Source of the DNA: an uncultured Candidatus Poseidoniales archaeon
GTDB taxonomy: Archaea; Thermoplasmatota; Poseidoniia; Poseidoniales; Thalassarchaeaceae
Assembly (NCBI GenBank): GCA_902601345.1
Contig: CACKMK010000002.1
Coordinates: forward strand, 43,571-107,570
Direction of reading: 5' to 3'
DNA: 64,000 nucleotides
Under the pieces are notes generated by a model. That model ran no database searches, was not told where the DNA came from, and saw nothing but the letters and a program-made list of their open reading frames with translations. Numbering within the stretch: position 1 is the first letter of the stretch; the number at the start of each line of letters is the position of its first letter. The translations under genes were made by a program, and so were the position numbers. Shown piece after piece: positions 10,801 through 41,772 of this stretch.

Positions 10801-11689
10801 AGGAGGTGTAGCGTGCCGAATAATCGGGTGGACCGATGCGTCTGCAGGCTACGCCCACCCGCTATTTCATGCTGCGAAGAGGCGTAACTGCGATGGGGAC
10901 GAGGATAGCATAATGATGCTGATGGATGGTCTACTGAATTTTACACAGACCATCCTGCCTGCGAACAGGGGAGGTAGAATGGATGCCCCCCTAGTTCTGA
11001 CGACTCGTCTTAATCCCAGCGAAATCGACAAGGAGGCTTTGAACGTGGATTGCGCCTGGTTTTACAGCAGAGATTTCTTTGAGTCTACTCTAGACCAGCC
11101 ACATCCAAAGGATATCAGGGACCTGATGGACATTGTAGAGGACCGTCTCGGGATGATTGGTGAAATTAGAGGCTACGGATGGACTCACGATTCTGGACCA
11201 TTGGACGCTGGTCCGGAGAATTCCTCATACAAGACGCTAGTCACGATGAAGGACAAGTTAGACAGACAACTGAGTCTAGGCAAGACTCTACGCCCAGTTG
11301 CTGCAGATAGAGTTGCCAAACAGGTAATCGAATCGCACTTCCTACCAGACATGAGGGGCAATCTGATGGCATACACTAGGCAGAAAATAAGATGTGTGAA
11401 GTGCGGCGAGTCATACCGGAGGATGCCGCTAGCGGGAAAGTGTATCAAGAATAAGCCGGCATCTGGTGGATTCTCAGGTGGAGAATTAGATTCGGGTTGC
11501 GGAGGGAACGTTGTACTGACTGTCTCTGAGGGCGCTGTTAGGAAGTACATCCAGATAACGGAGGACATCATGAATGAATTCGGAATAGATGACTACACAA
11601 AGCACAGGGTTGGGTGGATGTCTTCAAGCGTGGACTCGTTGTTCAATAATGACAAGGTTACCGTGATGACCCTTGAGGACTTCATCTAA
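7856..11689 (+). CDS. polC: DNA polymerase II (PolD) large subunit DP2
   Basis: Conserved archaeal DP2 blocks are present: GARMGRPEKS, HAAKRRNCDGDEDS, Zn-finger Cys clusters (CQKCG...C and CVKCG). The start is placed at MSKNIRAEE (ATG 7856 after GAGGGGAAGG). The ORF track starts at 7757. Confidence 0.95.
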   Translation: MSKNIRAEEIDVKRLEIERSDYYESLDKEIEEAYTIAAEAKKKGLDFSESVEIPRASDLASRTEKLLEDPYLYVDPDQRAKQPLKIEGYLRELLQKHDRESAAIMIAIHVTKEMHSATGDRRRAIDSGLRVGLAVLTEAVLVAPLDGIGEVRIMSNSDGSEFLSIDFCGPIRAAGGTAQALGVLIGDILRREIGVGRYIPTVPEVERVKEEFGLYRANLQFKPEPEETDLIVNECPVMINGEETERMECAGYKEVRNIVNDNGSFRTRVRGGVMLVIAEGLCLKAPKIRSHTERLGVPGWDFISKFADKKKDGKSETTELKSRVLEKEGRYMEDVIAGRPVFGEPREPGGFRLRYGRSRATGLAAAGLNPITMEALGGFLSVGTQMKIEGPGKACAVTPCVDIDGPTVLLRNGEFVRVGSQEEWKRCEGELLSIWDAGEILLGYGEFLENNKSLSPSSYSVDWWSVDLADSLDSHEKIESFAEIIGVKVGKLPPGMPFNGAISRGGESRLERSLRKRSWISYLKSLELSWDMVKEICESFGTAVPPPWNLWWSDLPIQFLPPLANEIESYGKIEGSSLRIGKSVEGWPYSFDKDSIGLANPILGEWPRWTEVYRHGLVKSSLMTLGLVHHHEGSDIVIPLHWEGLLDGLGLGEADGRIIVRREVDSLVSQTVGKISEVLNSKKKEDREKRAVDDYLVERSLSLVRKVSELPRWEDSVPCRIGARMGRPEKSGVREMSPMVHSLFPIGENGGPQRLVSEASSRGAIRVTVGPRICQKCGKETPHVTCHHRPDPKEPIECGGRTLEGPSRNRRGRRKGEITAVNLGSILEVKRRRLGLDRIPSKIKAVKGLVSKDQAPEQIEKGILRGLHGLSVFRDGTARFDMSDVPVTHFRPSEIGTSWKRLVELGYTHDHVGEPLKNDEQLLELLPQDFIPSRLASNHLLSTCSFVDDLLVRFYEMPPFYIAKNPEDIVGHIAIGLAPHTSGGVACRIIGWTDASAGYAHPLFHAAKRRNCDGDEDSIMMLMDGLLNFTQTILPANRGGRMDAPLVLTTRLNPSEIDKEALNVDCAWFYSRDFFESTLDQPHPKDIRDLMDIVEDRLGMIGEIRGYGWTHDSGPLDAGPENSSYKTLVTMKDKLDRQLSLGKTLRPVAADRVAKQVIESHFLPDMRGNLMAYTRQKIRCVKCGESYRRMPLAGKCIKNKPASGGFSGGELDSGCGGNVVLTVSEGAVRKYIQITEDIMNEFGIDDYTKHRVGWMSSSVDSLFNNDKVTVMTLEDFI

Positions 11690-12686
11690 TCAGGTATGAC
11701 AGAGGGTCTCCAAGAAGGAGCATTGGTAGTATTGCCAAGAAGAGGTAGACTAGAAATGGATGCTTGGTTGTTATCCAGACACTGTCCAAGCCCAATTCCT
11801 CGAGAAGCTCGAACTGCTTGTCCTTGTCATGGGCATTTGATAATCTCCTAGAGGGAAGTATCCGATCTACTGGACTCATCTCTCCGTTTTTCTCAATGAC
11901 CTCAGTCAGAATCCAAGATTGGTATGATTCAGAATCTGGGGCTTCCTTGAGATCTGAGATTCTTCTCTTCGTGGCGTGCCACGCCATCTTAAGATCTGAT
12001 AGTGAAGAAATATTGCCCCTCGCGGTGTTTTGAACGAAGATTATTGGTGGTGCAATCAGAAATGCAGCAGCGGCCCATATGAAGAGTACCATTGACGGGG
12101 GCATTCGGAATAGTGGGTCTTCCACCAGAGGGTACATCTGATCTGGCACGAATGCCCACGAGGGAAACACCAGAGTTACGAGAATCAGCGCCTTTACATC
12201 CGCTCCTCCTTGAATTAGCCCTATCCTCCATGAGCCATAGAAAATCGCAGAGGTCAGGAAAGCACCGTTCATACTCCACCAGAGAGTCGTTTCCTTTGAT
12301 TCATCGCCCAGAACCAAATCAACGAAATTTGTATCCGAGTAGACGTTCGCTCCGTACACGAATCCAACTAAACCCAGCGCATACACCACCGATAGGAGAG
12401 CCTGGTTTTGATTCCAATCCCTGAAATCTCGTGGATCCGGTGGGCCAGAGAAGCAGAAAGAATAGACTGCGACCAACGAGAATACCATGCATAGGTTGGC
12501 AATACCCATGTTCTCGGATACTATCTCCACCAAGAGGATGAGTACAACCGGGACAGACCATCTGACCCAGTGACTGTTCCTGACTGATAGTGTCTCCAAG
12601 TCTGAGCGTGCTGCAATGGCCATCATGATAGTTAGGGCCGAGATTCTCAGAGTGGACAGTAGGGGGTCGGCCACGATTGTTGACAA
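11682..12686 (-). CDS. archaeal prepilin/pre-archaellin signal peptidase (A24 family, FlaK/PibD-like)
   Basis: Polytopic membrane protein carrying the two aspartyl motifs (ARSDLETLSVRN and GGADVKALILV). It is the last gene in the archaellum cluster. Confidence 0.75.
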   Translation of the reverse strand: MSTIVADPLLSTLRISALTIMMAIAARSDLETLSVRNSHWVRWSVPVVLILLVEIVSENMGIANLCMVFSLVAVYSFCFSGPPDPRDFRDWNQNQALLSVVYALGLVGFVYGANVYSDTNFVDLVLGDESKETTLWWSMNGAFLTSAIFYGSWRIGLIQGGADVKALILVTLVFPSWAFVPDQMYPLVEDPLFRMPPSMVLFIWAAAAFLIAPPIIFVQNTARGNISSLSDLKMAWHATKRRISDLKEAPDSESYQSWILTEVIEKNGEMSPVDRILPSRRLSNAHDKDKQFELLEELGLDSVWITTKHPFLVYLFLAILPMLLLGDPLSYLIR

Positions 12687-14522: not shown

Positions 14523-14534
14523 ATGGAATCATTC

Positions 14535-16283
14535 CTAGTGATTGATTCCCGTCCAGGTCTCCAGTGCGGATGCAAACCTGTCCCAACCCTCTTTGTAGTA
14601 CACGTCTAATAAATCAAAAACGTCATCGTAGTGAGTTAGGTCTCTGTCGCACATCCTCTGGATGGCCTCTGTCCTTCTCTGCAACTCATCGTAGATGTCT
14701 CGCTTGCTCCGGAATCCCATCCTAGGGGCGATCTTGTTCTCCAGCATATCGGACTGGAACATCCCTCTGAAGTAGACCTCATCCGCCACTGGATCCCATT
14801 CGAACATATTTCTGGTGAGGATACCGTCAGCGGTCTTGTCGAATCCAATCACCTCGCTGACGCCGGTTATCCTCCTGGCTATACCCCCTCCTGGGGCTTC
14901 GACCACTTCCTGGAAGATTGCGAAGTTCAGGTTGTCGAAGAATCGGGCTGGGACGTTAATCGGGTCTCCTGTGAATCTCTGGATAAGCTTGACGATGTTA
15001 GAGGCGTGGAAGGTACCGACCACGGGGTGCCCTGTCTGCATAGCTTGGAAGGCGATTGCTCCCTCTACCCCCCTGATCTCCCCTATTATGATGTATCGGG
15101 GCCTGGATCTTAGTGCTGCCTTGAGCAGATCGAACATCTCCACTCTGGAGTCCTCATTCTTTGAGTCCCTGGTGATTAGCCTCTGCCATATTGTGTGAGC
15201 CACCTTGACCTCAGGAGTGTCCTCTGCTGTGTATATCTTGACATTGTGATCTATGAATGGGAGTACCGCGTTCAGCGTGGTGGTCTTTCCTGAGGCCGTC
15301 TCCCCCGAGACCAGCATGGACATCCCGGACTCCAGACCAAGCCAGATATATGCGGCCATCTGGGCGGATAGTGTCTTCCACTTGATCAACTGGATGATGG
15401 ATATGGTCTCCTCAGCGAACTTCCTTATCGTGAATGAAGAACCCTGGATAGAGACATCGTCGCTGTAGATTATGTTGATTCTAGAACCATCCAGCAGGGC
15501 ACCGTCGACAATCGGCTTGCTGTCAGATACTGGCCTCCCTATCCTTTCTGACATTGACCTCAGGTACTTGGTGAGAAGCTCCTGATCCCTGAATGCGATG
15601 TTTGAGGTAAGCATCGGGAAGACCTTGTGATCCATATTTATCCGAGATAGCCCGATCGAGTGAATATCCTCCAGCATCTCGTCGGCTAGAAGTGTCTCTA
15701 GAGGGCCGTTGTTAACTAGGTCCCTGACCACCACGTACTTGAGCCGATCGAGTTGTTCTGGTGTGACCTTGATTGGGGCCTCGCCCATGCCTATCAGTTC
15801 CCTTGCTTGGTTCACAACTGGATTGGAGAGAAGTGACGATGAAGTGGTGGTGGTCATCTCATCCATCATTTCGTGAATCATTGCGATGAATTCCTCGTCA
15901 TTGTCGAATCGCTCCTTCTGGGGAGCGTCTCTGAGGAGCCTTTCCACGATACGGTCCCTGATTTCGTCCTCCTCGTCTGTGATAGTTGGCTCTAGCCCGA
16001 ACCAGAAGGTGTTCCCTGCTCCTTCGGCTCCCTCAGGAGGGGAGTAGACATGTGCGAAGCAAGGAGGCTTTGTGGCGTAAATCAGGTTACGGGGGCTGAC
16101 GCTCTTCGCATCCCTGTCCAGAGGGCCATAGTAAATCGGCCTGGACCCGTGTTCTGCCTCGAACTGCTCGACCCATTCGCGGATATGTGGGTACTCGGCC
16201 ATGAGGCCACCGAGGTCGCCAGGCTCGATATTGAACTCTGGCTGTTTTCGGTCATCTTCGCTGGACTCTTGCTCGGTAACCAT
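14535..16283 (-). CDS. arlI: archaellum motor ATPase ArlI (FlaI), type II/IV secretion ATPase family
   Basis: Walker A SGETASGKTTTLNA, Walker B/Asp box region and IIGEIRG, in canonical position between arlH and arlJ. Confidence 0.95.
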   Translation of the reverse strand: MVTEQESSEDDRKQPEFNIEPGDLGGLMAEYPHIREWVEQFEAEHGSRPIYYGPLDRDAKSVSPRNLIYATKPPCFAHVYSPPEGAEGAGNTFWFGLEPTITDEEDEIRDRIVERLLRDAPQKERFDNDEEFIAMIHEMMDEMTTTTSSSLLSNPVVNQARELIGMGEAPIKVTPEQLDRLKYVVVRDLVNNGPLETLLADEMLEDIHSIGLSRINMDHKVFPMLTSNIAFRDQELLTKYLRSMSERIGRPVSDSKPIVDGALLDGSRINIIYSDDVSIQGSSFTIRKFAEETISIIQLIKWKTLSAQMAAYIWLGLESGMSMLVSGETASGKTTTLNAVLPFIDHNVKIYTAEDTPEVKVAHTIWQRLITRDSKNEDSRVEMFDLLKAALRSRPRYIIIGEIRGVEGAIAFQAMQTGHPVVGTFHASNIVKLIQRFTGDPINVPARFFDNLNFAIFQEVVEAPGGGIARRITGVSEVIGFDKTADGILTRNMFEWDPVADEVYFRGMFQSDMLENKIAPRMGFRSKRDIYDELQRRTEAIQRMCDRDLTHYDDVFDLLDVYYKEGWDRFASALETWTGINH

Positions 16284-16293
16284 TCAATCAACC

Positions 16294-16992
16294 TCATGCT
16301 ACAGCTGTGATATCCACGATGAATCCCATCTCGGGCATAACCTTCCATCCGATTCTCTCAGTCACTGGTCCCGCGGCTCGAAGGAATCGAGTGACGCTGA
16401 CGGTCCTGACAAGCTGTCCACCAACGACTGCGGTCATCATATCCAGCACGACCTCAGCGGAGTTCTTCATGTCCCTGAGGGTGTGGCTGTCCATCTCTTC
16501 GGGATCAATCGTCAATATCAGGGTACGACCCTCTGAGGTGAACTTCCGGAGAACCCTCAAAAGCTCCTTGCTCGACATATCATCTGGCATCAGCTCTGAG
16601 GCCCTGTCAATGATTACCACGTCTGCCTCCTTCGAGGCCGGTGACTCAAGTAGATTCAGCAGGGTTACTGGCTCTTCGGATGGTTCGGCAATGACTCCGA
16701 AGCTGGAAATCAGGTGGAATGATCCCTCGTCGATCCTCTTGTCCATGTAGTATCCGATGCTGGAAACCTGCTCAAGCCAGCCCCTCGTGGTTAGCTCGGT
16801 GGTGTATAGTGAGACTTTGACGTCGTTCGCTGTCATTCCGAATGACATTCGCTGTCCAATGATGCTCTTTCCGGAGCCAATGCCTCCGCAAACGAGCATC
16901 AGTGCCCTATTCGGGATGGCAGTCCCCATGCTCTGCCCCAGGCTGTCCTGGATTACCCCGAACTCGAAATTGTCGACGTTAGCTTGTGACAA
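16294..16992 (-). CDS. arlH: archaellum RecA/KaiC-like ATP-binding protein ArlH (FlaH)
   Basis: Walker A CGGIGSGKS in a 232-aa protein located between arlG and arlI. Confidence 0.85.
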   Translation of the reverse strand: MSQANVDNFEFGVIQDSLGQSMGTAIPNRALMLVCGGIGSGKSIIGQRMSFGMTANDVKVSLYTTELTTRGWLEQVSSIGYYMDKRIDEGSFHLISSFGVIAEPSEEPVTLLNLLESPASKEADVVIIDRASELMPDDMSSKELLRVLRKFTSEGRTLILTIDPEEMDSHTLRDMKNSAEVVLDMMTAVVGGQLVRTVSVTRFLRAAGPVTERIGWKVMPEMGFIVDITAVA

Positions 16993-17458
16993 GTCTTACT
17001 TCCTCCGAAACTGTGTATGCCCCAGCGTAACCCGTTGCAGTCGATACAACCGTTATTGTCATTATTACATCATTGGTGCCGGTGTAGCTGAGGGTATCGC
17101 TGGTATCGTCGACTGTGAACTGGACGATCTGCCCTTGTACCCAAGTCGTAGAACCGTCTGCGACTGACACGGTCATTGGGGTCCCCTCGATGTAGACTCC
17201 TATGGTTTCTAGGTCCAATTGCGTCTCGCCGGAATTCTGAATGTACAGTGTTGCCCTCTTCTCTGTGTCATCCCAACCTACATTGCTTGGGTCATTGACT
17301 AGGGATGCTCTGGTACGGACGTCCTCAGCGCCCTCCTTGCCCCTATCCTCGATTGCAGAGTCCATGTCCCCCCATGTGTCCAGGAGTACGCCTGAAACTA
17401 GGCCTGCTACTATCAACCCGGCAATGAGGAGAATGATCTCTGAGGGTCCGTTAGCCAT
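16979..17458 (-). CDS. arlG: archaellum protein ArlG (FlaG)-like
   Basis: Archaellin-like hydrophobic N-terminus (SEIILLIAGLIVAGLVSGVL) followed by a beta-rich domain. Its operon position matches flaG. Confidence 0.6.
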   Translation of the reverse strand: MANGPSEIILLIAGLIVAGLVSGVLLDTWGDMDSAIEDRGKEGAEDVRTRASLVNDPSNVGWDDTEKRATLYIQNSGETQLDLETIGVYIEGTPMTVSVADGSTTWVQGQIVQFTVDDTSDTLSYTGTNDVIMTITVVSTATGYAGAYTVSEEVRLVTS

Positions 17459-17469
17459 CTATTCTCACC

Positions 17470-18234
17470 TCATGAAATTGTTACCGAAACCGCGTCGTTG
17501 TAGTCGTATATGGCTAGGAATGCCCTGTCTGGGTCTGCGTCTACAGAGAATCCATGGCTTGCCAAGGATAAAGGGAATGGCTCTGTGGATATCTCCTCAC
17601 CGGGGAAGAGGTACAGGTTTCCCCCGGTATAGTGGTCTGTGAACTGGAATGGTATGCCCTGTTGAATAGGGGAGGTGTCCGAGAGCGTAATCACCACGTG
17701 AGACAATTCAACCGTCTCTGAGCCTGTGTTGCTGATGGATATGGTATTCTGGTCCTCGATCGCTGTGATTGTGTAGGTGGCTGTTCCATCGGAGCCATCG
17801 GAGCCGCAGTCTATCGTCACGACCTCGGCAACGGCGTATCCGTTTCCTGGTACAAGGGTGGCACCGTTGTATCCATCAACCTCACCATCGCCATTAGCAT
17901 CGAGGATTTCGATAGTTGCCCCAGCGCCTGAGGAGCTGCTGACTAGGTCGCATGTTGTCCCTGAGATGTAGTCGCTGCCCCCGGAGTTTACTCCACCCGT
18001 CCAAGAAAGGGTGGAGACTGGCCCCGTTGACTCCTGCTTGTCAGTGACGCTCACTATCACGACCTCAGGGTCGGGTAGCTCGTAATCCGTGTTCTTGATC
18101 GACTCGTTGACGCTGTCGACCAGTGTGACGGTGGCCATTCCGAAGATCATTATGAAGACGGTGCCGACGACCATCGCAGCTACGCTAGAACCAGCCAATA
18201 CCCATCCCCCTATGGAGTCCCCTGGGCCCTCCAA
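17470..18234 (-). CDS. arlF: archaellum protein ArlF (FlaF)-like, enlarged (254 aa)
   Basis: N-terminal TM (VLAGSSVAAMVVGTVFIMIFGMATV) plus a beta-rich domain, in the operon position of flaF. It contains a DANGDGEVDG motif. Confidence 0.55.
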   Translation of the reverse strand: MEGPGDSIGGWVLAGSSVAAMVVGTVFIMIFGMATVTLVDSVNESIKNTDYELPDPEVVIVSVTDKQESTGPVSTLSWTGGVNSGGSDYISGTTCDLVSSSSGAGATIEILDANGDGEVDGYNGATLVPGNGYAVAEVVTIDCGSDGSDGTATYTITAIEDQNTISISNTGSETVELSHVVITLSDTSPIQQGIPFQFTDHYTGGNLYLFPGEEISTEPFPLSLASHGFSVDADPDRAFLAIYDYNDAVSVTIS

Positions 18235-19028
18235 GCCTCGATCATCGCTGCGAAGGTCAGGAGCGTCCTGTTGTCAACCGCTGGTGCTCCCTCTGACTCT
18301 GCCCCGGCCTCTGCCAGCGCGGCGATTGAGCTCAGCGCCTTCTCCTCTGCCGCGGTGATCACTCCCGACTTGGAGGCGGCCTTTAGGAATCCCAGCGTGT
18401 CTGCCCCGCTCATGTTGTCGAGCAGAAGGGCTACTATCTTGGTGGGGTCAACTGACGGCCCGTGCATCAAGGCGTCTGCCTCCCCGCTCTTCAGGAAGGG
18501 GTTGACTGCCAAGGACTGGGCCTCGTAGAGGTCTAGGAGGCCCGGGCCTCCGGCCTTTCCACCGTGGGATAGAGGCCCTTCGACCTCGGACGCGGGAGAG
18601 TCTGCGGGTCGGCTAGTGACCTCTCCGTCATCGCCCACGGTGTGGATCACGTCCTGGGAAGCGCCTGCGGAGGCGCTAGCCGCAGATACCGAATCGGCTG
18701 CTATCTTCGCTGTCTGCTGGGCGGTCATCTTGATGTTGGCCTCCATCAGGTCCATTGCCGTCTCCAGCCTCTCGAACCTGTCCTTGACCATGTCCACCAG
18801 CTCCGGGATCTTGTCCTGCCCCTGGCTCGCCTGAGGGTCGCCGAGAACCCCGACCCTGGTCCCGGAGGGGGCGAAAAGCCACGCCTCTAGGTCCGTCGGC
18901 CTGAACTCGGTTGGGATGTCCACGTGCTCGACGCTTAGCCTGGCTACCTTGTCCAGCCTGGATGACATCCCGGGGTCGGCATCGGAGGAGCCACTAGAGC
19001 CAGACCTGAATTTGTCTAGTAATCCCAT
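18210..19028 (-). CDS. archaellum accessory protein, ArlC/D/E (FlaC/D/E)-like
   Basis: Soluble 272-aa acidic protein between the archaellins and arlF, where euryarchaeal flaC/D/E sit. The call rests on position and composition, not on a motif I can name. Confidence 0.45.
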   Translation of the reverse strand: MGLLDKFRSGSSGSSDADPGMSSRLDKVARLSVEHVDIPTEFRPTDLEAWLFAPSGTRVGVLGDPQASQGQDKIPELVDMVKDRFERLETAMDLMEANIKMTAQQTAKIAADSVSAASASAGASQDVIHTVGDDGEVTSRPADSPASEVEGPLSHGGKAGGPGLLDLYEAQSLAVNPFLKSGEADALMHGPSVDPTKIVALLLDNMSGADTLGFLKAASKSGVITAAEEKALSSIAALAEAGAESEGAPAVDNRTLLTFAAMIEAWRAQGTP

Positions 19029-19078
19029 TCCAACACCTCATGATCCCACCTCGCAAGGCACCTCTAACCCTAAAGGTC

Positions 19079-19723
19079 TCACATCATCGAGGAGCCCAAA
19101 GTCAGGGAGTGTACTGTAAACTCCGTTAGGGTCTCTCCACCGCCGTCTACGACTATGCGCATGTTCAGTGTCTCACCTTGGGTTGCAGTGGTGTCGCAAC
19201 CTGGGTTGACATCATCTGTGTCCACATCACCGTCACTGTCAACGTCCGAGTTTCCTAGGGTAACCGTGGTGTAGTAGGTGTTTCCGGCCGACAGCTCGGT
19301 AGTGCCGGCTATTGGAGTCTCGGTGATTATGCTGGATGCTGGGAGGGTTCCGTCGTCGAACCCGAGACCCAGTCCGGTGTGAGCGCTGAGATCGCACGTG
19401 ATATAGTAGGAGACGTCACCCGGGTAGATGCCGGTTGAACCGGACGATACCCTCCATACGACGTCGAACGTAGCCACGTGGCTTCCTGCTCCTATGTCGT
19501 CAGCGATGGTATTCACAATCAAGTCCGTGAGCGCGACCTTACCGGATATCTGCTGTCTGGTGTCGCTGCTGGTCTGCTCTGCGTTCTGCTGTAGCTCTTC
19601 GGCGGTCTTGATGATGATCGTCGAAGCAACTGCGGCCACTAGGATCAGGGCGATGAAGACGATCATCGCACCGATACCGATTGAGCCCGAGTCCTCTTTG
19701 TCCCTTGGAATTCTCTCGTTCAT
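19079..19723 (-). CDS. arlB: archaellin (ArlB/FlaB), second copy
   Basis: Class III signal peptide followed by SIGIGAMIVFIALILVAAVASTIIIKTAEELQQNAEQTSSDTR. The start is placed at ATG 19723 (GGGAGG lies 7 nt upstream). The ORF track starts at 19738. Confidence 0.9.
   Translation of the reverse strand: MNERIPRDKEDSGSIGIGAMIVFIALILVAAVASTIIIKTAEELQQNAEQTSSDTRQQISGKVALTDLIVNTIADDIGAGSHVATFDVVWRVSSGSTGIYPGDVSYYITCDLSAHTGLGLGFDDGTLPASSIITETPIAGTTELSAGNTYYTTVTLGNSDVDSDGDVDTDDVNPGCDTTATQGETLNMRIVVDGGGETLTEFTVHSLTLGSSMM
19560..19681. repeat. 122-bp segment identical to 20205-20326 (archaellin N-terminal domain)
   Basis: Direct comparison of the two stretches (gtgtcgctgctggtctgctctgcgttctgctgtagc...atcgcaccgataccgat) shows no mismatch, while the flanking sequence diverges. 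Confidence 0.9.
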
Positions 19724-19738
19724 GCTATCGCCTCCCAT

Positions 19739-20374
19739 CTAAACCACCGATGCCCCCGAGGTTAGTGAGTCTATCTTCAGTTCTGTAACGGTCGTGCCAC
19801 CATCGGTTACGATGATCTTGAGGAGCATCGTCTCGCCGATTCCGCCTAGGGCGTCGCAGTCCCCTCCGTTGGTTATTATGTCGAAGCGGAATACGGTTCC
19901 AGCGTCCATCTCAAGGGACCCGAAGTCGGAGCCGTCGAGGTTGTCCGCGTTCTGTGACTCTGTTCCGTCGATGGTGCCACCTTCAGCATCGGTTCCCCCT
20001 AGTGCGGAGGTGCCGAGGTTACCTGCTACGAGCCCGTAGCTTGCACTGTCACCGCATGTGAGGAGCCAGTTGATGTTCTGGGCAACCAGGTTCTGGGCTC
20101 CAGCGGCGACCTTGGCCGTGAAGACCATGCTCTCGACGTCGGTCGCGCTCGATGTGTTCACCAGCGCCTGTACGATGTTGATCTTCCCGGAAATCTCCTT
20201 CCTCGTGTCGCTGCTGGTCTGCTCTGCGTTCTGCTGTAGCTCTTCGGCGGTCTTGATGATGATCGTCGAAGCAACTGCGGCCACTAGGATCAGGGCGATG
20301 AAGACGATCATCGCACCGATACCGATGGAGCCTTCCTCTCGGTTTCTTTCTACTGTCTGGTATTCTTCGCTCAT
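19739..20374 (-). CDS. arlB: archaellin (ArlB/FlaB), first copy
   Basis: Its hydrophobic N-terminal domain is identical to the downstream paralog, and the C-terminal beta domain is divergent. GGTGA lies 8 nt upstream of the ATG. Confidence 0.9.
   Translation of the reverse strand: MSEEYQTVERNREEGSIGIGAMIVFIALILVAAVASTIIIKTAEELQQNAEQTSSDTRKEISGKINIVQALVNTSSATDVESMVFTAKVAAGAQNLVAQNINWLLTCGDSASYGLVAGNLGTSALGGTDAEGGTIDGTESQNADNLDGSDFGSLEMDAGTVFRFDIITNGGDCDALGGIGETMLLKIIVTDGGTTVTELKIDSLTSGASVV
20205..20326. repeat. 122-bp segment identical to 19560-19681 (archaellin N-terminal domain)
   Basis: See the partner copy at 19560-19681. Confidence 0.9.
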
Positions 20375-20410
20375 TGCGTGTTCACCCGTGCCCCCCTGTG
20401 AATGCTAATC

Positions 20411-20419
20411 ATTTATGAT
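20411..20419 (-). promoter_or_regulatory. TATA-like element (minus strand ATCATAAAT) upstream of the first archaellin
   Basis: A/T-rich box about 40 nt upstream of ATG 20374, in the 88-bp gap after the 347-aa gene. Confidence 0.35.
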
Positions 20420-20435
20420 ATTACTGGAAAATGTG

Positions 20436-20448
20436 CTGGATAATCCAG
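20436..20448. promoter_or_regulatory. perfect 6-1-6 palindrome CTGGAT-A-ATCCAG just upstream of the archaellin TATA-like box
   Basis: Read directly from the sequence. It lies between the stop of the 347-aa gene (20463) and the putative archaellin promoter. Confidence 0.3.
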
Positions 20449-20462
20449 TTCTGAGCGGTAAA

Positions 20463-21506
20463 TTAGCTACCGATTCCTACTGCTTCTCGCAGGTTCAGTA
20501 CCTCGATGGGAACGTGAACGACATCCCCTGGTCCAAGGTTCTCCACGAGTGGGAGCCTCATCGTCTCGAATCCCTCTGGCATCCATGGATCCAACAGGAG
20601 ACCCTGCATGATGTTCGGAGTCCTGTTTTCTACCCTGGTCTGGACATTCAGGCTACCGTACTCGACGTCATATCCGGTGGTGATGTTCAGGCTGCTTCCA
20701 AGGAGTGCTGTGGATGGGAAGGATCCGGATGGCCTGATCTCGATCCCGATCTCGATGAAGCCATCTGGGGGTATCTCGGGAATCTCGCACATCTTCGGAG
20801 TGGCAGACCACCCGTACGGTATTGGCGGGGCAAGCCTCATTGTGGAGATGTTGTTCTCGCCGGTGTTCTCTAGTGTAATTACCATCAGGGCGTGGTCCTT
20901 GCCCTCTGGCCATGTCGTCCCTATAGAAAGGAAGAAGCTGTTCACTAGGAAGGGGCTGGCAGCCTCGTTGACAGCGACTGGGCCGAGTGCGCTGATTGCG
21001 TCCTCGAACGCCTTTGCCGCGGACGAGAGGTCGGAGTCGAGTGCCTCCTTACCCTGGTTGACCAGCGTGAGTGCGATGTCCTCTATGTCGCTGAGCTCAC
21101 CCATCTCGTTGAGGTGCCTTCCAAGGGTGTTCAGTGACCTCTCGAGTCCGTCTTTGCCCATCGATGCGACTGCGCCCTCTACGCAATCTGCTGCTGCTCC
21201 CCAGTTCCCCTCCCTGAGGTGCTGCAGGCCTAGCATTGTCAGGTCCCAGGCGTTGCGATCGCCTTCTGACATCTGCTCGAGCTCCTCGAGGGATCGCTCT
21301 AGCGATGATAGCGCCCTGTAGAGGTCCATGATCTGTCCTTCTGCCTCTTCGACCTCCTTCGATAGGTCTCTCAGCATCTTTCTGGCGCCTATAGGCCTGT
21401 TTGCCCAGATTGCGAATTGGATGTTCTCGGCCTCTTCCTCGATGTAGTCGATCCGCTTGAGAGTGGCCTCGGCCCCTCCCGTTGCGGGTGCCTTCGTCCG
21501 TGCCAT
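20463..21506 (-). CDS. hypothetical protein: N-terminal coiled-coil/helical half plus C-terminal CARDB-like beta-sandwich, no signal peptide
   Basis: 347-aa ORF. A heptad-like region (EVEEAEGQIMDLYRALSSLERSLEELEQ) is followed by VITLENTGENNISTMRL-type strands. Its start lies 1 nt after the stop of the 1731-aa gene (TGA G ATG), with GGAGGGAGG inside the upstream gene's last codons. Confidence 0.7.
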   Translation of the reverse strand: MARTKAPATGGAEATLKRIDYIEEEAENIQFAIWANRPIGARKMLRDLSKEVEEAEGQIMDLYRALSSLERSLEELEQMSEGDRNAWDLTMLGLQHLREGNWGAAADCVEGAVASMGKDGLERSLNTLGRHLNEMGELSDIEDIALTLVNQGKEALDSDLSSAAKAFEDAISALGPVAVNEAASPFLVNSFFLSIGTTWPEGKDHALMVITLENTGENNISTMRLAPPIPYGWSATPKMCEIPEIPPDGFIEIGIEIRPSGSFPSTALLGSSLNITTGYDVEYGSLNVQTRVENRTPNIMQGLLLDPWMPEGFETMRLPLVENLGPGDVVHVPIEVLNLREAVGIGS

Positions 21507-21507
21507 C

Positions 21508-24500
21508 TCAGTTCCTCCCTCCTGGCTTCTGACCTGCCCTTCCGAGGATCTTCTTGATTCTGATAGCTCGGAGCTCTATATCAGCGAGTTCGCTGTAAAG
21601 CCTGTCGTAAGAGCTGTCCAGGAATTTCAGGATGATGTGCACTAGGATGGGCGAGGCGATCATGAATCCGATTATGGATATCAACGACGATGCCCCCAGA
21701 TCTATGGCGAGGGATGGTGAGATTAGTACGAATGGAAGGAAGGCGTAGGGAGAGCAGGAGATGATGGCGCGGAGCTCGTTCCTAGTGTTCTGCTGTTCCT
21801 TGTCGTGATCCTCCAACAGCGCCATCGTTCCGATTCTGGCCTTCTTCCTGTCGTCATGGATCGCCTGGAGCTCGCTGGAGGATAGCCATGCTACAAGCCC
21901 TGCGAACAAGATGGAGGCTAGAGCGCAAAGAAGTGATAGGATCGTGGAGGCGCCGGTTAGCGAGAGGGCCCCGAATGCCATTGCTGCCACGTACGAGGAC
22001 GCATGCAGGCGGCTCTCTTGCTCTTCCAGTCCCTGTCTGATGAGCGATACCGCCAAGAGGAGTAGGAGTGCTGCGATTAGAAGTGCGGACGGGAGTTGCA
22101 GACCGGATAGTTCGACGGCTGGGGTGGACCATGAGTCAATGGACAGGTCCTCCGTCCTGACGTCATTTTCTACGACGTTGCCGAAGATTCCGCCCATCTG
22201 CATTATGATGTCCGGATAGGTGATGGATGCGGAGCAAGTCAGTGTCTCTGAGGACTTGTACCATGGGATTGGGTTTAGTTCCACGGCCCAGGAAGCAGTG
22301 AAGTTCCCGTTTGCCTCAAGAGCTGGTATCGGGTACGATGCGAACATGTTCGTCACGTCTGCGTAAGGCGTGGGAGTGCAGTCGAGGTTCAGTTGGGACT
22401 GTGTTGGCATTACTGCGTATCCTGCGTTAATTACGGTAACGTCGATCCAAGTGCTCTCCCCCTCTACGCCCTCCCCCCTGAATGTGATGCTGTTGACGAG
22501 GGGATCCGTCGATTCTGTCATCCTGAGTCTGACGACTAGATCCGTCGAGTACTCCGTTGTCTTGGGCTCCTCTGGGTGTCTTAGTTGCAGGTAGATGTTC
22601 CATCCGTCTCCCGCTGCAACCCCGTCCAGCTGCTTCTCGGGGATAATTACCTGGAGTACGATTGTGCCCCCGTGAGCGGAGTCTGGGCTCCCTCCCTCAT
22701 AGGGAGTGGTGGCGTCGAGTTCCCAATCCGAGTTGCATGTCTCTTCCGTCGCGTCCGTGGCGGCGATACCGAATCCATCTATGTCTGCTAGTTCGCACTT
22801 CGCAGTACCTGCATCGGTGTCGTGATCGATGTATAGCCACCAATGCACCTTGGGGTAGCTGGCTGAGTCCACGAGGCGTTCTGGGGGGTCTGCTGATGCA
22901 TCGTAGGGGTCCATATCCCCGTTCAATGCCAGTGTGTAGGACCTCGGGTCGAATGAGCTGTCTCGGTAGTTTATGTCCACCCATGGTATCTCTATCTGCC
23001 TGCAATTCGGGTCGTCGTTGTTTTCGCACTGGTACTGGCCGGCGGCATCGGCGCTCAAGGTGTAAGTGTCATCGGTCTGGGCTCTGACGACGGTGATTGG
23101 GAAGGAGTTCTGCTGGGTCTCCATCGCGGCGTCCACTGGTACTCTCTTCAGGATGAATGTTCCTTGCTCGCCCTTGATCGTGTCATTATGTGTCATTGCG
23201 AATTCGAAGCTAATTGAGCTGGTCTGCCCAACCTGCAGGTACAGGTTTGTAGAGCCTAGCGAGTTTCGGACTTCGAACCTATCTGGCTTCGAATCGTCCT
23301 GTTCCGTGTCTATGGTTTCCCACTGTATTGTGAGGTTGATCGGTGCGTTGCCCTTGTTCTCCATTTCGAATTCGATTGACCTGTCCACCCCTGGGACTAT
23401 TGCTATCCTCTGTGGGGACTTGGTCAATTCCACATCGAAGACGGGGAGGACCTTGATTTTGAGCGTCGAAGTCCCAGCTGGGACGCCCCCACCCATTGCG
23501 ACCCTCTCTGACAATGGAACGGGCTGGGCCACTCCATCGACCATTTTTGTTGCAGGCCATGTGGGGAACGGGTCGGTGATGTTTACCGCTCTCATGGTTA
23601 GGTTGTGGATGACGTCGGCTACGAGAATCTGGTCTCCGTCCCTGAGAGGGGGCAGTGTGATGCTGAGGAGTACGGTACGAGACTCATACTGGTCTAGTGA
23701 GAATCCGGATTCGTTGACCTGGTAAGACCAGTTGGTCATTCCCTCTGGGAAGGTCACAGTCAAGTTCAGTGTCTCCATGAGGTTGCCGTCGTTCCGTAAA
23801 ACCACCTCTAGGTCGAGGGTGTTCCCCGGGGCTACCTGCATTTCGGTGGGAGCTATGAATAGTATTGCATGGTCAGGAGCAACCTGAACCTTCCATTCGC
23901 TTGTGGACATTAACTGGCCGTCGTGAGACGCATTCAGGAAGAAAGTCTGGTTTTCATCTGCTCTCGAGTCCTCTCCAGCAGTGGAGTAAATCCTGACGAT
24001 TCCCTGCGACCCTGCCGGGACCAACAGTGTGGATTCGGTCACACAGGGCTGCATCTCCTCAGAGAAGCAGACCCTGATCTTGTCGACATCGAGATTGTCC
24101 AGGGACAGGTTGTATGTGACGTTCTTGTTTCCTGTGTTATTGAGCAGGGCAATCAGGGTCTTCTGGCCGACTCTGCTGTCCAATGAGGGGGAAGGGGTGA
24201 TTACCGCCGTGGAAGTAGGGGGGTAGAGTTCTGCCGAGATGACTTCGGTGAGGGTGAAGAGGGCAGGGGCATATGCAAGCAGTTCTCCAGTTTCCGTGGA
24301 GTTGGCGTACACCCAGACCTGATGTGTCTCATCCGCTCTGGCTGAGGCCGGGGGAGTGGCGGTGACCGTTATTGGCCGCTGATTCTGGGTTGATGAACCG
24401 TCATTGTACAGATTCGTCATGGAGGGTACGAGGTTCGCCGCGGTGGACCCCAGGGTGATGGTCCATCCAGGCTTAGGGACGTATCCGATGGTGAAGTTTG

Positions 24501-26703
24501 CTGGATCGTTCCCTGTGTTCTCCAAAACCACCTCAGAGGATATGGGGGTCCCAGGGTCCCCATTGGCTGCTCCTGAGGAAGTCAGCTCTGCCGACCAGAG
24601 TTCTGCTATTGACATGGAAACCGTGGCTGTGGCATTACGGGAAATTGCCCCGGAGAAAGCAGCCCAAGATGATGTCGCCATGAACGAGAAGTTGAGGTGA
24701 CCCGCCGATGGGTATTGGAAGTCTGGGGTGGGGCCGAAGCTCAGTCCCACCATTCCGTATCCGGTTTCTCCTGGCAGGAGTTCCAAGGTCGAGGCGGAGG
24801 ATGAGGAAGAGGTCTGGACCGTAGCCGTCCAACGCGAATTCTCGATGAGGCTGGAGCCAGCCGGGGTATCCTGAAGAAAGACCTTCCCATTGCTACAGGT
24901 GGATTGCGTCCAAGGGCTACCCGATGCAGCAGTGGTTGGCGCTAGGGAGGTACACGGCATGGCGCTGAGGGATACTTGGGCCAAGGTGTTGTTTGAGCCG
25001 AGATTGTGAACTATCGTCACTTCGAAGCCGACGAACCTGTCGGTATTGCCCCCGATGATGTCATTGACTGAAATATCATCGATTTCACTGGTCACGGAGA
25101 TGTCCAACTCAACAATGCTGTCTATCATTAGCGTCGTCTGGTTGACTGCTGGGACTCCCCCCTGTAGGGGGATTGCTTGGACCATCAGATCCACTCTTTC
25201 TATGGAGGAGACCTTCCAGGACGGGTTCAGTGGCATCTCTAGCTCCGGGGTGGTGATTGTTACGGGAAGTGTCCTGGTCTCATTTGGCAGCAGTACGTCG
25301 GTGATTGTGACAGGTGAGTCTATGATCCAGTACGGCACCGATTCCGTCGCTCCGACATCTATCTGATACTGGGCTGGTGCGGTACCGGTGTTCATCAGGG
25401 TGTATTGTAGGGTCCTGGGGGAACCGGGGGTGATGTTCGCGAAGTTTTCTCCCATCGAATGGCTGTGGTTTTGGAAAATCTCCGCGCTGAATGTACCTCC
25501 TGCCATGACCATTGTGCTGGCTGAGAGGACGTAACCCGCCGTGTCGCTTTGAATTGTTAGGGTCACAATTACGGCGTCTCCATTGGCGGCATCCGCGGGA
25601 ACATCGACCGGGATCTGAATTGCATGGGTTTGCTGGGCGCCTACATTGAGAAGGTTGGTGGAGGAATGTATCTGATCCGTGATATTTACCCAGTAGTTGG
25701 CGGGGTCGGAGTTGTTGCTCTGTGTCACGGTGAAGTTGTCCTCAACGGTTCCAGAGTTCTGTAGTATGAAGTTCAGAGTTGCCTGCGAACCTGGGTCGAC
25801 GTTCCGGTTGTTGGCTGGTATTAGCGATGCCCTTAGGGCTACGAAGCTCACTATTCTGGAGTCGATTGTGACCGAGCCCTGTGTAGAGCCCGACACAAGT
25901 ATGCTACCACTAAGGGTGTAATCTCCTTCAAGTCCGGAGCCATCGAACGATATTGTGATATTAGCAGGGGTTGGAGGATCTGCAAGGCTTCCGGGAAGCA
26001 ATTCTTCTGTACTCGAGGAGAGGGGGACGCTCGAACCACCCAGCGACGGAGTTAGTGTTAGCTGGGCTGTGACGTCGACTGGTTGATTGCCCGTGTTGAC
26101 CACGGTGATTGCTCCTTCCCAGAGTGCTCTCGCTAGGGAAGACCCATCGGATGGTAGGGAGTCTGCGATGTCTGAGGCAGACTCCACCTCAGCGACGCTT
26201 ACACCGGATAGAGACATCTGGTTATTGCTCGAGTCCGAGTCGGAGGATGATGATGCCGGGATCCATGACGCAGTTATCTCATATCCTGTTCCTGAGAGGG
26301 AAGAGGCGTCCCAGTACATCACGCTGTTTACCTGTCCTCCAGGAGTGATGGTGGCAGTCCTGTTGTCAACGACGACCCCGTTAACCTTGAGCGTTACATT
26401 GCCTTCGGCAGTAGACCCGCCCTGATTGGTAGTCCCGACAACAATCACGTGATCAACAGGAGCCAGTGTGGGGGTTCCTCCAACCGTAGCGGAGGGTGTG
26501 GTGACGTCTAGATCGGTTACTACCACATCTGGGCCCATTTGACGAGTCGAGCTTGGCATTGGGTTCTCTTCGTCTGTAGCAACGGGAATACCAGCGAGCA
26601 GGGGGGAGAGGAAAAGTAGAGCGACTAGAATCGTGGCCTTGCTAGCCGTTCTAGTTGTCCTATGTAGGTTTCTTGAGGATTCTTGACTGGAATCTTTCAG
26701 CAT
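21508..26703 (-). CDS. giant cell-surface protein: signal peptide, at least 8 CARDB/Ig-like beta-sandwich repeats, C-terminal multi-pass membrane domain
   Basis: The 1731-aa ORF has an N-terminal signal/TM (ATILVALLFLSPLLAGIPVA). A recurring strand motif appears as VVNTGNQPVDV, ILQNSGTVEDNF, LMNTGTAPAQY, LENTGNDPANF, LNNTGNKNVTY, LRNDGNLMETL, MENKGNAPINL and VINAGYAVMPT. It carries many N-x-S/T sequons. The last ~270 aa hold about 5 hydrophobic helices. GAGGAGGGGAG lies upstream of ATG 26703. Confidence 0.85.
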   Translation of the reverse strand: MLKDSSQESSRNLHRTTRTASKATILVALLFLSPLLAGIPVATDEENPMPSSTRQMGPDVVVTDLDVTTPSATVGGTPTLAPVDHVIVVGTTNQGGSTAEGNVTLKVNGVVVDNRTATITPGGQVNSVMYWDASSLSGTGYEITASWIPASSSSDSDSSNNQMSLSGVSVAEVESASDIADSLPSDGSSLARALWEGAITVVNTGNQPVDVTAQLTLTPSLGGSSVPLSSSTEELLPGSLADPPTPANITISFDGSGLEGDYTLSGSILVSGSTQGSVTIDSRIVSFVALRASLIPANNRNVDPGSQATLNFILQNSGTVEDNFTVTQSNNSDPANYWVNITDQIHSSTNLLNVGAQQTHAIQIPVDVPADAANGDAVIVTLTIQSDTAGYVLSASTMVMAGGTFSAEIFQNHSHSMGENFANITPGSPRTLQYTLMNTGTAPAQYQIDVGATESVPYWIIDSPVTITDVLLPNETRTLPVTITTPELEMPLNPSWKVSSIERVDLMVQAIPLQGGVPAVNQTTLMIDSIVELDISVTSEIDDISVNDIIGGNTDRFVGFEVTIVHNLGSNNTLAQVSLSAMPCTSLAPTTAASGSPWTQSTCSNGKVFLQDTPAGSSLIENSRWTATVQTSSSSSASTLELLPGETGYGMVGLSFGPTPDFQYPSAGHLNFSFMATSSWAAFSGAISRNATATVSMSIAELWSAELTSSGAANGDPGTPISSEVVLENTGNDPANFTIGYVPKPGWTITLGSTAANLVPSMTNLYNDGSSTQNQRPITVTATPPASARADETHQVWVYANSTETGELLAYAPALFTLTEVISAELYPPTSTAVITPSPSLDSRVGQKTLIALLNNTGNKNVTYNLSLDNLDVDKIRVCFSEEMQPCVTESTLLVPAGSQGIVRIYSTAGEDSRADENQTFFLNASHDGQLMSTSEWKVQVAPDHAILFIAPTEMQVAPGNTLDLEVVLRNDGNLMETLNLTVTFPEGMTNWSYQVNESGFSLDQYESRTVLLSITLPPLRDGDQILVADVIHNLTMRAVNITDPFPTWPATKMVDGVAQPVPLSERVAMGGGVPAGTSTLKIKVLPVFDVELTKSPQRIAIVPGVDRSIEFEMENKGNAPINLTIQWETIDTEQDDSKPDRFEVRNSLGSTNLYLQVGQTSSISFEFAMTHNDTIKGEQGTFILKRVPVDAAMETQQNSFPITVVRAQTDDTYTLSADAAGQYQCENNDDPNCRQIEIPWVDINYRDSSFDPRSYTLALNGDMDPYDASADPPERLVDSASYPKVHWWLYIDHDTDAGTAKCELADIDGFGIAATDATEETCNSDWELDATTPYEGGSPDSAHGGTIVLQVIIPEKQLDGVAAGDGWNIYLQLRHPEEPKTTEYSTDLVVRLRMTESTDPLVNSITFRGEGVEGESTWIDVTVINAGYAVMPTQSQLNLDCTPTPYADVTNMFASYPIPALEANGNFTASWAVELNPIPWYKSSETLTCSASITYPDIIMQMGGIFGNVVENDVRTEDLSIDSWSTPAVELSGLQLPSALLIAALLLLLAVSLIRQGLEEQESRLHASSYVAAMAFGALSLTGASTILSLLCALASILFAGLVAWLSSSELQAIHDDRKKARIGTMALLEDHDKEQQNTRNELRAIISCSPYAFLPFVLISPSLAIDLGASSLISIIGFMIASPILVHIILKFLDSSYDRLYSELADIELRAIRIKKILGRAGQKPGGRN

Positions 26704-26832
26704 CGCTTCCGCTCCCCTCCTCGTAGAGGAGACTAACCTTCATTATGAAATAACCGGAGGAAATAATTGCACTTCTTAGTTCATCTGGGTTGCAACCGAT
26801 GTTATGAAAAGTCACTGCTCAGGTTCGCTCAC

Positions 26833-28014
26833 GTGGCGGACGCTGTATCCCTCGTTGTCATCGGTCTTATTCTGATGGCGACCTTCAATGGCTTGTTTCG
26901 AATTCTGCGTTCGCAAAATAGGAGGACAATCCTCCCTTCTACAAGGAGGAACGTCCCAGAGGAGGTTCTCGCAGGATCTACATCTAGAAGGAGAAGGGGA
27001 AGGGGAAGAGATCGTTCTGGCACTCCAACCGTATCCAGTTCACTAGGGGAGGGCTCTGAGGCAATTGGTGCCGGAGTGCAGGAAGCAGAGATATCAGAAA
27101 AGGGCGCTTCTGCACTCGAGAAGAGGCTCGAGAGGGAAGGAGCAAAGAGGGGTTCTGTCCAGATCAGTCTGATGTGGGATAATTGGAATGATCTCGACCT
27201 ACATGTAATCACCCCATCTGGAGAGCACATCTATCACGATAACAGGACATCAAATTGCGGTGGTGAGCTAGATGTAGACATGAACTTCAAGCCTACTTCG
27301 AAATCCCCAGTTGAGAATATTGTCTGGACGAAAACCCCTCCTCCAGGAGTCTACAGAGTTGGAGTCAGGCACTACAAAATCCATACAAAAGGGTTGTTCT
27401 CATGGGTACCTCTTCTACGAAGAATACACAATAAGAACGAGACAGATTTCACGGTCAGCCTGACAATTGGTGAGAGCAAACGGTTCTACGAGGGGGCCCT
27501 TGTCAAGAGTAATGACCTGCAATTCGTCGCTAAGTTCGCCATAGCTGGTCCAGATGGAGAAGTGCCTCAGCCTTCGGCGAGTGATGAGGAATTGGCTGAG
27601 GATACAAAGGAGGATTTCACCGAGGCTAGAGATGTGGATGAGCTTAGGAGAAGGGTGGGGACGGTTCAAGACGGTGCATCGGTGAGTCTCAACTGGGAAG
27701 GTAGTTCTGACTTGGGGCTCTCAATAATTGATTCTAATGGCGAGGAGTTGTCTTTCTTCAATCCGGAGGGATTGGGAGGAGGGAAATTCGATATGGATGG
27801 TTACGACCCTGAGTCCGGCTCCAGAGAGATAAGATGGGCCTCTTCTCCTCCATCCGGGACTTACTCGGTGGTTGTGAGGCACTTTGAGACAGAAGGTGAA
27901 GAAGGAGAGGTTCAGTTCGAGGTTAATGTGAACAACGGTGGGGATAGACAGCAATTCTCCGGATCTATCCAATCGGATGGCTCGTCTGTAGAGGCCGGAA
28001 GTTTCGAAATCTAG
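26833..28014 (+). CDS. membrane-anchored protein with two DUF2135/YfaP-C-like domains
   Basis: It has an N-terminal TM ([18 protein letters not shown]) and an Arg-rich linker. Two homologous modules follow: [24 protein letters not shown]...GGELDVDMN...[13 protein letters not shown] and [23 protein letters not shown]...GGGKFDMDG...[13 protein letters not shown]. The start is uncertain (GTG 26833 or TTG 26767). Confidence 0.6.
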
Positions 28015-41698: not shown

Positions 41699-41772
41699 TG
41701 GAGCACGAGCCGGGATTTGCACCCGGGTCCATGGATCTGCAGTCCATTGCATAGCTGCTCTGCCACTCGTGC
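41699..41772 (-). tRNA. tRNA-Cys (anticodon GCA), CCA encoded
   Basis: The minus strand reads GCACGAG-UG-GCAG-AGCAGCU-AUGC-A-AUGGA-CUGCAGA-UCCAU-GGAC-CCGGG-UGCAAAU-CCCGG-CUCGUGC-U-CCA. It has a perfect 7-bp acceptor, a 5-bp anticodon stem and a 5-bp T stem. Discriminator U73 is typical for Cys. The D and T loops are non-canonical. Confidence 0.8.

Follow-up and report, generated by a model that had tools for sequence, protein, structure and literature searches.

A gene for a 1731-amino-acid (aa) surface protein, from here the giant, lies next to the archaellum (arl) genes of an uncultured Candidatus Poseidoniales archaeon of the Thalassarchaeaceae (assembly GCA_902601345.1, contig CACKMK010000002.1). 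The stretch analysed, 64,000 nucleotides (nt) from position 43,571 to 107,570 of this contig, is called the window in the following; its source organism belongs to the Poseidoniales (marine group II, MGII), more precisely to MGIIb. We report that the giant is very probably a dedicated component of the archaellum module and not an ordinary wall protein. Together with p347, the small gene between it and the archaellin genes, it shows a strong genomic link to this module, with which both appear to be gained and lost. The original prediction, made from the sequence alone, had considered an S-layer or adhesin gene merely neighbouring the operon or, alternatively, an undescribed envelope component tied to the archaellum. 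Strict linkage and joint absence support the second option, while the anchoring or surface sensing suggested for such a component can be put forward as a proposal. The coordinates of all features are given in Table 1.

The open reading frame (ORF) is real. Among 5.8 billion clustered proteins we found 72 full-length relatives of 1571-1736 aa with 33-100% identity. The named ones belong to Candidatus Thalassarchaeaceae or Poseidoniales and are annotated as 'hypothetical protein' or 'uncharacterized membrane protein'. More distant homologs from MGIIa have 23-30% identity; among the full-length members, the most divergent (23-28%) carry the names Poseidoniaceae or Poseidonia. Length and domain order are kept across the Poseidoniales. 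By sequence comparison, the family is confined to this order, spans both its families and has one fixed architecture.

A species scan, with one genome per species (GTDB) and the family alignment as query, returned 52 giant loci, all from Poseidoniales and at 27-96% identity. Wherever enough downstream DNA was available, the giant was followed by p347 (42/42), archaellins (32/32) and ArlI (23/23). A metagenome scan used the divergent neighbour of the giant, up415, as bait and yielded 80 loci; among those with enough DNA, p347 came after the giant in 33 of 33 and ArlB in 22 of 22. Giant-bearing loci number 52 from species genomes and 72 from metagenomes, with an arl context wherever flanking DNA was present, and the giant was never seen at a non-arl locus in the species-genome, metagenome and protein-set searches. 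Homologs at unrelated loci or in archaellum-less genomes had been named as findings that would speak against a tie to the archaellum; none was found, and two arl-less genomes lack the whole block. The placement of the gene, co-oriented with the arl string and one small gene away from it, had been read correctly, with p347 in between and the same order in all testable loci.

In MGIIb the flanking genes up415, PriL, PolD and DUF373 are syntenic too; therefore, distant MGIIa members were examined. Two MGIIa-type contigs have other flanks, with AcnX and redoxin at one end and HhH-GPD and PolX at the other, yet the order giant-p347-arlB-arlB-...-arlJ is kept at 23-25% identity. General synteny is therefore no explanation for the linkage. 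At three MGIIa-type loci, an additional, very basic non-membrane protein of 141-143 aa is encoded just 5′ of the giant (L056, 9346-9777; L058, 5615-6040; L059, 5425-5856). Its gene overlaps the giant in L058 and L059 and has no counterpart in the MGIIb window.

According to published surveys, the archaellum operon occurs throughout MGIIa and in about half of the genera of MGIIb (PMC6461757; PMC6336850). The up415 bait gave no archaellum-less loci, because up415 was found only beside the giant (60 of 60 metagenome loci with upstream DNA). Anchoring on homologs of the primase large subunit PriL, which is encoded nearby, did reveal such loci. Five PriL contexts were looked up, and in three of them (L140, L142 and L143) up415, the giant, p347 and archaellins are all present. 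In the remaining two, L141 (GCA_902607915.1) and L144 (GCA_036228425.1), PolD DP2 is located directly beside a 250-aa gene and PriL, and up415, the giant, p347, the arl genes and the peptidase are completely missing.

Within a few kb of PriL, both arl-less loci encode a large protein unrelated to the giant (about 1,720 aa; L141, 14851-20007, and L144, 10580-15745, both on the minus strand), for which no equivalent was seen at this position in the window. The 1718-aa protein of L141 was considered as a relative of the giant and ruled out, as it carries many Asp-rich repeats like those of thrombospondin type 3 and only one helix, at the C-terminus. In L140 (2819-7823, minus strand) the giant was split into two predicted ORFs (919 and 765 aa), due to a frameshift or a long-read assembly error.

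These observations bear directly on the possibility that the giant is an ordinary S-layer or bulk surface glycoprotein that lies beside the archaellum operon through inherited gene order. Its design does resemble that of archaeal S-layer glycoproteins (signal peptide, acidic immunoglobulin (Ig)-like repeats, sequons, C-terminal membrane anchor), and the wider PolD, PriL and DUF373 neighbourhood is conserved in MGIIb as well. A bulk S-layer protein would be expected regardless of surface appendages; the giant, however, is missing, as are the arl genes, in relatives that cannot do without an envelope. No copy of the giant turned up elsewhere, its linkage holds where the flanks differ, it is coupled in translation to a cytoplasmic partner, and in the window its codon composition matches that of the arl genes. 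No S-layer family of Pfam or NCBIfam was matched at the thresholds used. A wall protein unconnected with the neighbouring operon is thus very unlikely and largely refuted by the genomic comparisons.

The composition in question is the GC content at third codon positions (GC3), which is 0.64 in the giant, 0.70 in p347 and 0.57-0.77 from arlB to arlJ. Values of 0.45-0.54 were obtained for PolD, the peptidase, up415, PriL and beyond, which delimits an island from 12720 to 26703. The pattern recurs in L142 and is missing in L002 and L056, and the idea that raised GC3 marks the module in general was dropped for this reason. The island could result from lateral spread of the module among MGIIb or from expression-linked codon bias.

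The start codon ATG of p347 is located 1 nt past the stop codon of the giant, with the Shine-Dalgarno (SD)-like sequence GGAGGGAGG within the last codons of the latter; MGIIa loci have an overlap of 4-8 nt between the pair. By this arrangement, the giant and p347 are translationally coupled. The p347 protein has neither a signal peptide nor a hydrophobic segment and is better conserved than its partner, with 54-56% identity where the giant has 33-35%. An AlphaFold2 (AF2) model with a mean predicted local distance difference test score (pLDDT) of 68 consists of an N-terminal six-helix domain, coiled-coil-like in appearance, and a C-terminal beta-sandwich. Fold searches with it returned generic matches only, namely helical bundles and weak similarities to MSP, PapD and transglutaminase-type Ig folds. 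Searches of the PDB by sequence and profile gave nothing meaningful for the giant, p347 or up415.

The giant itself starts with ATG, preceded at 8 nt by the purine-rich GAGGAGGGGAG, a putative SD of the gene, which agrees with the earlier claim that the gene has an SD-like sequence of its own. Similar purine-rich runs precede p347 (GGAGGGAGG) and arlB1. The predicted N-terminal signal or transmembrane (TM) segment was recovered as a single N-terminal hydrophobic segment, aa 19-44. Throughout the family the N-termini have short h-regions and AxA-like sites (AxA-type in MGIIa members), and the segment looks like a cleavable Sec signal. A pilin-like giant with a class III signal was considered as well and ruled out. 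The protein of the window carries K-A-T-I-L-V, but the family as a whole does not keep the [KR][GA] motif, the N-termini in MGIIa are Sec-like, and the giant does not match the Arch_flagellin model of Pfam.

For the segment between the signal peptide and the membrane module, the original prediction had counted at least eight recurrences of a CARDB/Ig-like strand motif. We located ten, with the N-x-G motif at aa 93, 203, 316, 438, 567, 729, 856, 971, 1116 and 1426; across 17 homologs with 35-66% identity, little or no variation occurs at these positions. The tandem repeats have lengths of about 110-130 aa and are related to each other. When sub-alignments of the domains were compared by hhalign, D2, D3, D5, D6, D7 and D8 were linked at 62-95% probability (D3-D8, 95.5%; D3-D5, 94.3%; D2-D6, D2-D8, D2-D5, D5-D6 and D2-D3, 72-79%), while D1, D4 and D9 joined other repeats more weakly. 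In a profile-profile self-comparison, aa 1206-1395 were unrelated to the repeats. Pfam models for Ig-like domains scored above cut-off at aa 300-390 (FixG_C, 30.4 bits, cut-off 25.6; Ig_VWA7, 29.3 bits, cut-off 27), and among 17 family members matches were obtained to Ig_VWA7 (12), FixG_C (10), CARDB (6) and NPCBM_assoc (6), besides fn3_5 and related Ig models. On the basis of these matches and of the repeat structure, the ectodomain is assigned to the Ig-like/CARDB repeat class (PF07705, PF10633, PF11614, PF23619).

The ectodomain is strongly acidic (D+E = 168 versus K+R = 58). The number of N-x-S/T sequons had been called very high. It is indeed raised, with 28 compared to about 17 expected from composition (z = 3.0); this enrichment is modest, is shared by the closer homologs and is absent in the most distant MGIIb clade, and sequon richness was dropped as a family-wide trait since it holds in part of the family only. 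Within the ectodomain, conservation peaks at aa 150-500 and is weakest at aa 1050-1350.

The C-terminus was predicted to end neither in a single anchor nor in a PGF-CTERM-type signal, and this is what we found: there is no PGF motif, and no NCBIfam sorting-signal model matched at E ≤ 1. The hydropathy profile places five helices at aa 1535-1555, 1571-1590, 1592-1610, 1650-1668 and 1672-1695; a basic tail of amphipathic character comes after the last of them. Helices and tail are thus as had been described, but the module is about 197 aa long instead of about 270 aa and begins near aa 1535 (nt 22101). With the ectodomain outside, every K/R-rich segment comes to lie on the predicted inner side. 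Three conserved basic segments, a short loop, a loop of 43 aa and the amphipathic tail of 37 aa, are accordingly predicted to lie in the cytoplasm, in agreement with the positive-inside rule. An AF2 model of the module (pLDDT 71, predicted TM-score 0.63) is all helical; in it, TM3 and TM5 are prolonged into long cytoplasmic helices and an extra helix precedes TM4.

The cytoplasmic loop is the most conserved part of the giant. In 18 diverse members, the mean identity to the query was 78% for aa 1601-1650 and 35-70% elsewhere; the last two helices and the tail reached 64-66%. The conserved motifs SSSELQAIHDDRKKARIG, NTRKELRAIISC and LDxSYDRLYxELAxIELRAIKIKKILG are kept in recognisable versions in MGIIa, where a long acidic C-terminal tail is added. 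A profile of the module (aa 1530-1731) found only 39 clusters among 1.84 billion representatives; each match is C-terminal, either in a protein of about 1,550-1,700 aa or in a fragment. The module gave no match to a known anchor, sorting signal or fold, and a match of this domain to a known sorting or anchor system, named beforehand as an outcome against the prediction, was therefore not encountered. An internal duplication (two TM hairpins, each followed by an EL[QR]AI helix) was rejected at an hhalign probability of 0.3%; only the short motif recurs.

Such conservation on the inner side raises the possibility that the role of the giant is mainly cytoplasmic, with the module and p347 forming a ring or cap that holds ArlH, ArlI and ArlJ, which is the job of ArlX or ArlCDE elsewhere, and with the ectodomain being secondary. 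The cytoplasmic loop, the tail and p347 are far better conserved than the ectodomain, the helical domain of p347 is coiled-coil-like as in ArlX and ArlC, and canonical ArlC/D/E are not recognisable by Pfam in the window, where p272 gives a weak FlaC match only. Against this, a cytoplasmic scaffold has no need for about 1,490 aa of extracellular repeats conserved over their full length, the position of ArlCDE is already occupied by the conserved p272, and likeness to ArlX or ArlCDE was found neither in sequence nor in fold (the giant and p347 had no FlaC_arch, Arch_fla_DE or ArlX-like match at E ≤ 10). We regard this possibility as quite improbable.

Instead, we favour the reading that the giant is a Poseidoniales-specific envelope scaffold or stator anchor, linked to the cytoplasm via p347, and we assign it a probability of about 0.4. 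As read from the sequence, the giant is exported by its Sec signal, its acidic, glycosylatable ectodomain of about 1,490 aa stands outside the cell, and the five-helix module fixes it in the membrane. Its cytoplasmic segments may dock p347, and the pair could then form a trans-membrane scaffold around the base of the archaellum. On the outside, such a scaffold would offer a fixed envelope structure to the ArlF/ArlG stator or to the emerging filament, and on the inside it would be tied to the motor complex. How ArlF/G are anchored in the S-layer-less Thermoplasmatales has been stated to be an open question (PMC12448462). A scaffold of this kind would matter in the Thermoplasmatota, whose cultured Thermoplasmatales have no canonical S-layer.

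Several points weigh against the scaffold. All of its support comes from comparative genomics. That the Poseidoniales need a private envelope anchor is an assumption, and the contacts of the giant with p347 and with ArlF/G are guesses. The membrane-distal N-terminal third (aa 150-500) is the best-conserved part of the ectodomain, a pattern not readily expected from a role near the membrane beside ArlG. Both AF2 models have only moderate confidence (pLDDT 71 for the module, 68 for p347). The 88-nt gap between p347 and arlB1 holds an AT-rich box and may carry a separate arlB promoter, in which case the giant and p347 may form a transcription unit of their own. Finally, most loci were retrieved by way of the giant or up415; the only unbiased set is that of the five PriL contexts, and no systematic search was made for arl clusters without the giant.

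The same linkage to the arl genes would be expected if the giant were an archaellum-coupled adhesin or a sensor of surface or load. Its Ig ectodomain would bind particles or algal surfaces, and the conserved loops together with p347 would pass on a signal of attachment or load, either to the motor or to gene expression. The Poseidoniales have no chemotaxis genes (PMC6461757; PMC6336850; PMC6864105) and adhesion has been proposed as a function of their archaellum (PMC6461757; PMC6864105); an adhesin or sensor might give this lineage a switch between swimming and sticking. A long stalk of Ig repeats is typical of adhesins, and the conserved cytoplasmic face suggests communication across the membrane. 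However, scans against Pfam and NCBIfam detected no known adhesion or ligand-binding domain in the giant, and neither the giant nor p347 gave a match to a domain of signalling type (kinase, HAMP, GGDEF-like) in the domain scans. The distal third is the most conserved in the ectodomain, whereas adhesin tips usually vary. Moreover, the arl-less genomes seen here have other large adhesin-like proteins (with thrombospondin type 3 repeats), and adhesion as such therefore needs no giant. An adhesin or sensor thus appears rather unlikely.

In a more far-reaching version of the scaffold reading, the giant and p347 would be a new trans-envelope stator that is brought along by the motor and consists of an Ig scaffold, a five-helix module and a cytoplasmic adaptor. 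We consider this version doubtful. If it were true, such a stator would let a lineage without canonical S-layer resist the counter-rotation of the motor, or sense load, and up415 may be a further part of it.

Among known systems, the nearest precedent for the giant is the S-layer-like Ig-fold proteins of Methanococcales (arCOG05057) and Thermococcales whose genes lie in archaellum loci (bioRxiv 10.64898/2026.04.22.720090; Makarova et al. 2016, PMC4858521). These have been proposed, not shown, to adapt the envelope locally (bioRxiv 10.64898/2026.04.22.720090). The giant is likewise large, secreted, built of multiple Ig domains and located beside arl genes; it differs by the five-helix module with its conserved cytoplasmic face and by the coupled p347, features that the available parts of these sources do not describe for the other proteins. 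Searches of 5.8 billion and 1.84 billion proteins with the giant gave Poseidoniales only, and no arCOG set was compared, so that kinship with arCOG05057 is either below the reach of HMMER or absent. The placement of the giant had been taken to lie outside the canonical euryarchaeal operon; it is less unprecedented than thought, because the 2026 preprint notes Ig-fold proteins in other archaellum loci.

Anchoring of the motor to the S-layer has been ascribed to ArlF and ArlG (Banerjee 2015, Tsai 2019, as cited in PMC12448462). They share with the giant the extracellular beta-sandwich, which is predicted in the latter, and the location in the archaellum cluster, and the giant is proposed here as their envelope-side partner or as supplying it. 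However, ArlF and ArlG are small, archaellin-derived proteins with a single N-terminal helix, while the giant is about ten times larger, has a Sec signal and a C-terminal five-helix anchor, and lacks an Arch_flagellin match. An ArlG-like gene and a gene at the position of arlF are present besides it. ArlX of the Thermoproteota and ArlC/D/E of the Euryarchaeota are lineage-specific accessory parts whose coiled-coil or helical cytoplasmic domains surround or dock ArlH/I/J. The cytoplasmic loops of the giant and p347 could act similarly but show no sequence or fold match to them; moreover, ArlX has one N-terminal TM helix and no ectodomain, and ArlCDE provide a tie to CheF-based chemotaxis, which is missing in the Poseidoniales. 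With CARDB/COG1361-type proteins and S-layer glycoproteins the giant has in common the signal peptide, tandem CARDB/Ig-like repeats, acidity and sequons. Unlike PGF-CTERM or single-TM-anchored proteins, it possesses a polytopic five-helix module with a conserved cytoplasmic bundle, and unlike CARDB/COG1361-type proteins, its distribution tracks the archaellum and not the lineage.

Archaea of marine group II are among the most abundant archaea of the surface ocean. Whether they use their archaellum for swimming or for attachment is unsettled (PMC6461757; PMC6336850). As an order-wide conserved pair travelling with the arl genes, the giant and p347 are concrete candidates for the questions of motor anchoring and of swimming versus attachment, and they can be tested without culture. 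Unannotated conserved hypothetical proteins have been reported to be syntenic in the MGII motility region (Tully 2019, PMC6336850, Fig. 4). In the available parts of that paper the giant is not singled out, nor is it described or interpreted in the parts examined of the MGII and archaellum literature. Two or three families now labelled 'hypothetical' or 'uncharacterized membrane protein' could join the parts list of models for the detection of archaella in Poseidoniales.

Table 1. Positions of the giant, its segments and the neighbouring genes in the window (numbered from its first nucleotide).
Feature	Position	Strand	Remark
Giant gene, 1731-aa surface protein	21508..26703	-	whole ORF including stop; ATG start
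Purine-rich SD-like GAGGAGGGGAG	26712..26722	-	8 nt 5′ of the ATG of the giant
N-terminal Sec-type signal peptide, ~aa 1-42	26578..26703	-	hydropathy and family N-termini
Acidic ectodomain, ~aa 43-1534; ~ten Ig/CARDB-like repeats (predicted beta-sandwiches) and a distinct Cys-containing region, aa 1206-1395	22102..26577	-	
C-terminal five-helix membrane module with cytoplasmic loop and tail, aa 1535-1731, ~197 aa	21511..22101	-	
Cytoplasmic loop SSSELQAIHDDRKKARIG...NTRKELRAIISC, aa 1608-1650	21754..21882	-	most conserved stretch of the giant
p347, 347 aa, no signal peptide	20463..21506	-	six-helix N-terminal domain and C-terminal Ig-like beta-sandwich (AF2)
arlB1, archaellin	19739-20374	-	Pfam Arch_flagellin (E = 3e-18 and 8e-12 for the two archaellins)
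arlB2, archaellin	19079-19738	-	Pfam Arch_flagellin (see arlB1)
p272, ArlC/D/E-position protein	18210-19028	-	position; weak FlaC_arch match, E = 0.039
p254, ArlF-position protein, N-terminal TM	17470-18234	-	position; no match
arlG-like	16979-17458	-	Pfam Arch_flagellin
arlH	16294-16992	-	KaiC-type ATPase
arlI	14535-16283	-	T2SSE
arlJ	12720-14522	-	T2SSF
pep334, A24/FlaK-like prepilin peptidase	11682..12686	-	Arc_PepC_II 28.8 bits (cut-off 29.9); FlaK_Arch weak
up415, divergent gene; TM/N-terminal helix, Arg-rich stretch, two PPC/DUF2135-like domains	26767..28014	+	Pfam PPC 26.1 bits

The archaellum cluster itself had been predicted as arlB-arlB-arlCDE-arlF-arlG-arlH-arlI-arlJ-peptidase. Pfam and NCBIfam models bear out the two ArlB, the ArlG-like protein, ArlH, ArlI, ArlJ and the peptidase, while ArlCDE and ArlF are assigned by position and weak matches only. 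The two proteins at these positions, p272 and p254, are both conserved in related loci. From the giant to the peptidase, intergenic gaps are small or negative. The archaellin genes arlB1 and arlB2 share the near-identical stretch GSIGIGAMIVFIALILVAAVASTIIIKTAEELQQNAEQTSSDTR and diverge after it, a pattern that points to the N-terminal helix having recently undergone duplication or gene conversion.

The annotated TTG start of up415 is probably about 20 codons too early, with the true start further downstream. In two MGIIa-type contexts up415 is not adjacent to the giant; from its neighbourhood in the other loci, it may be a further module-specific gene. A 133-aa ORF on the minus strand (26829-27230), antisense to up415 and just 5′ of the giant gene, is probably spurious because the frame of up415 is the conserved one. 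The sole Rfam match in the window is one tRNA gene at 41702-41772 on the minus strand.

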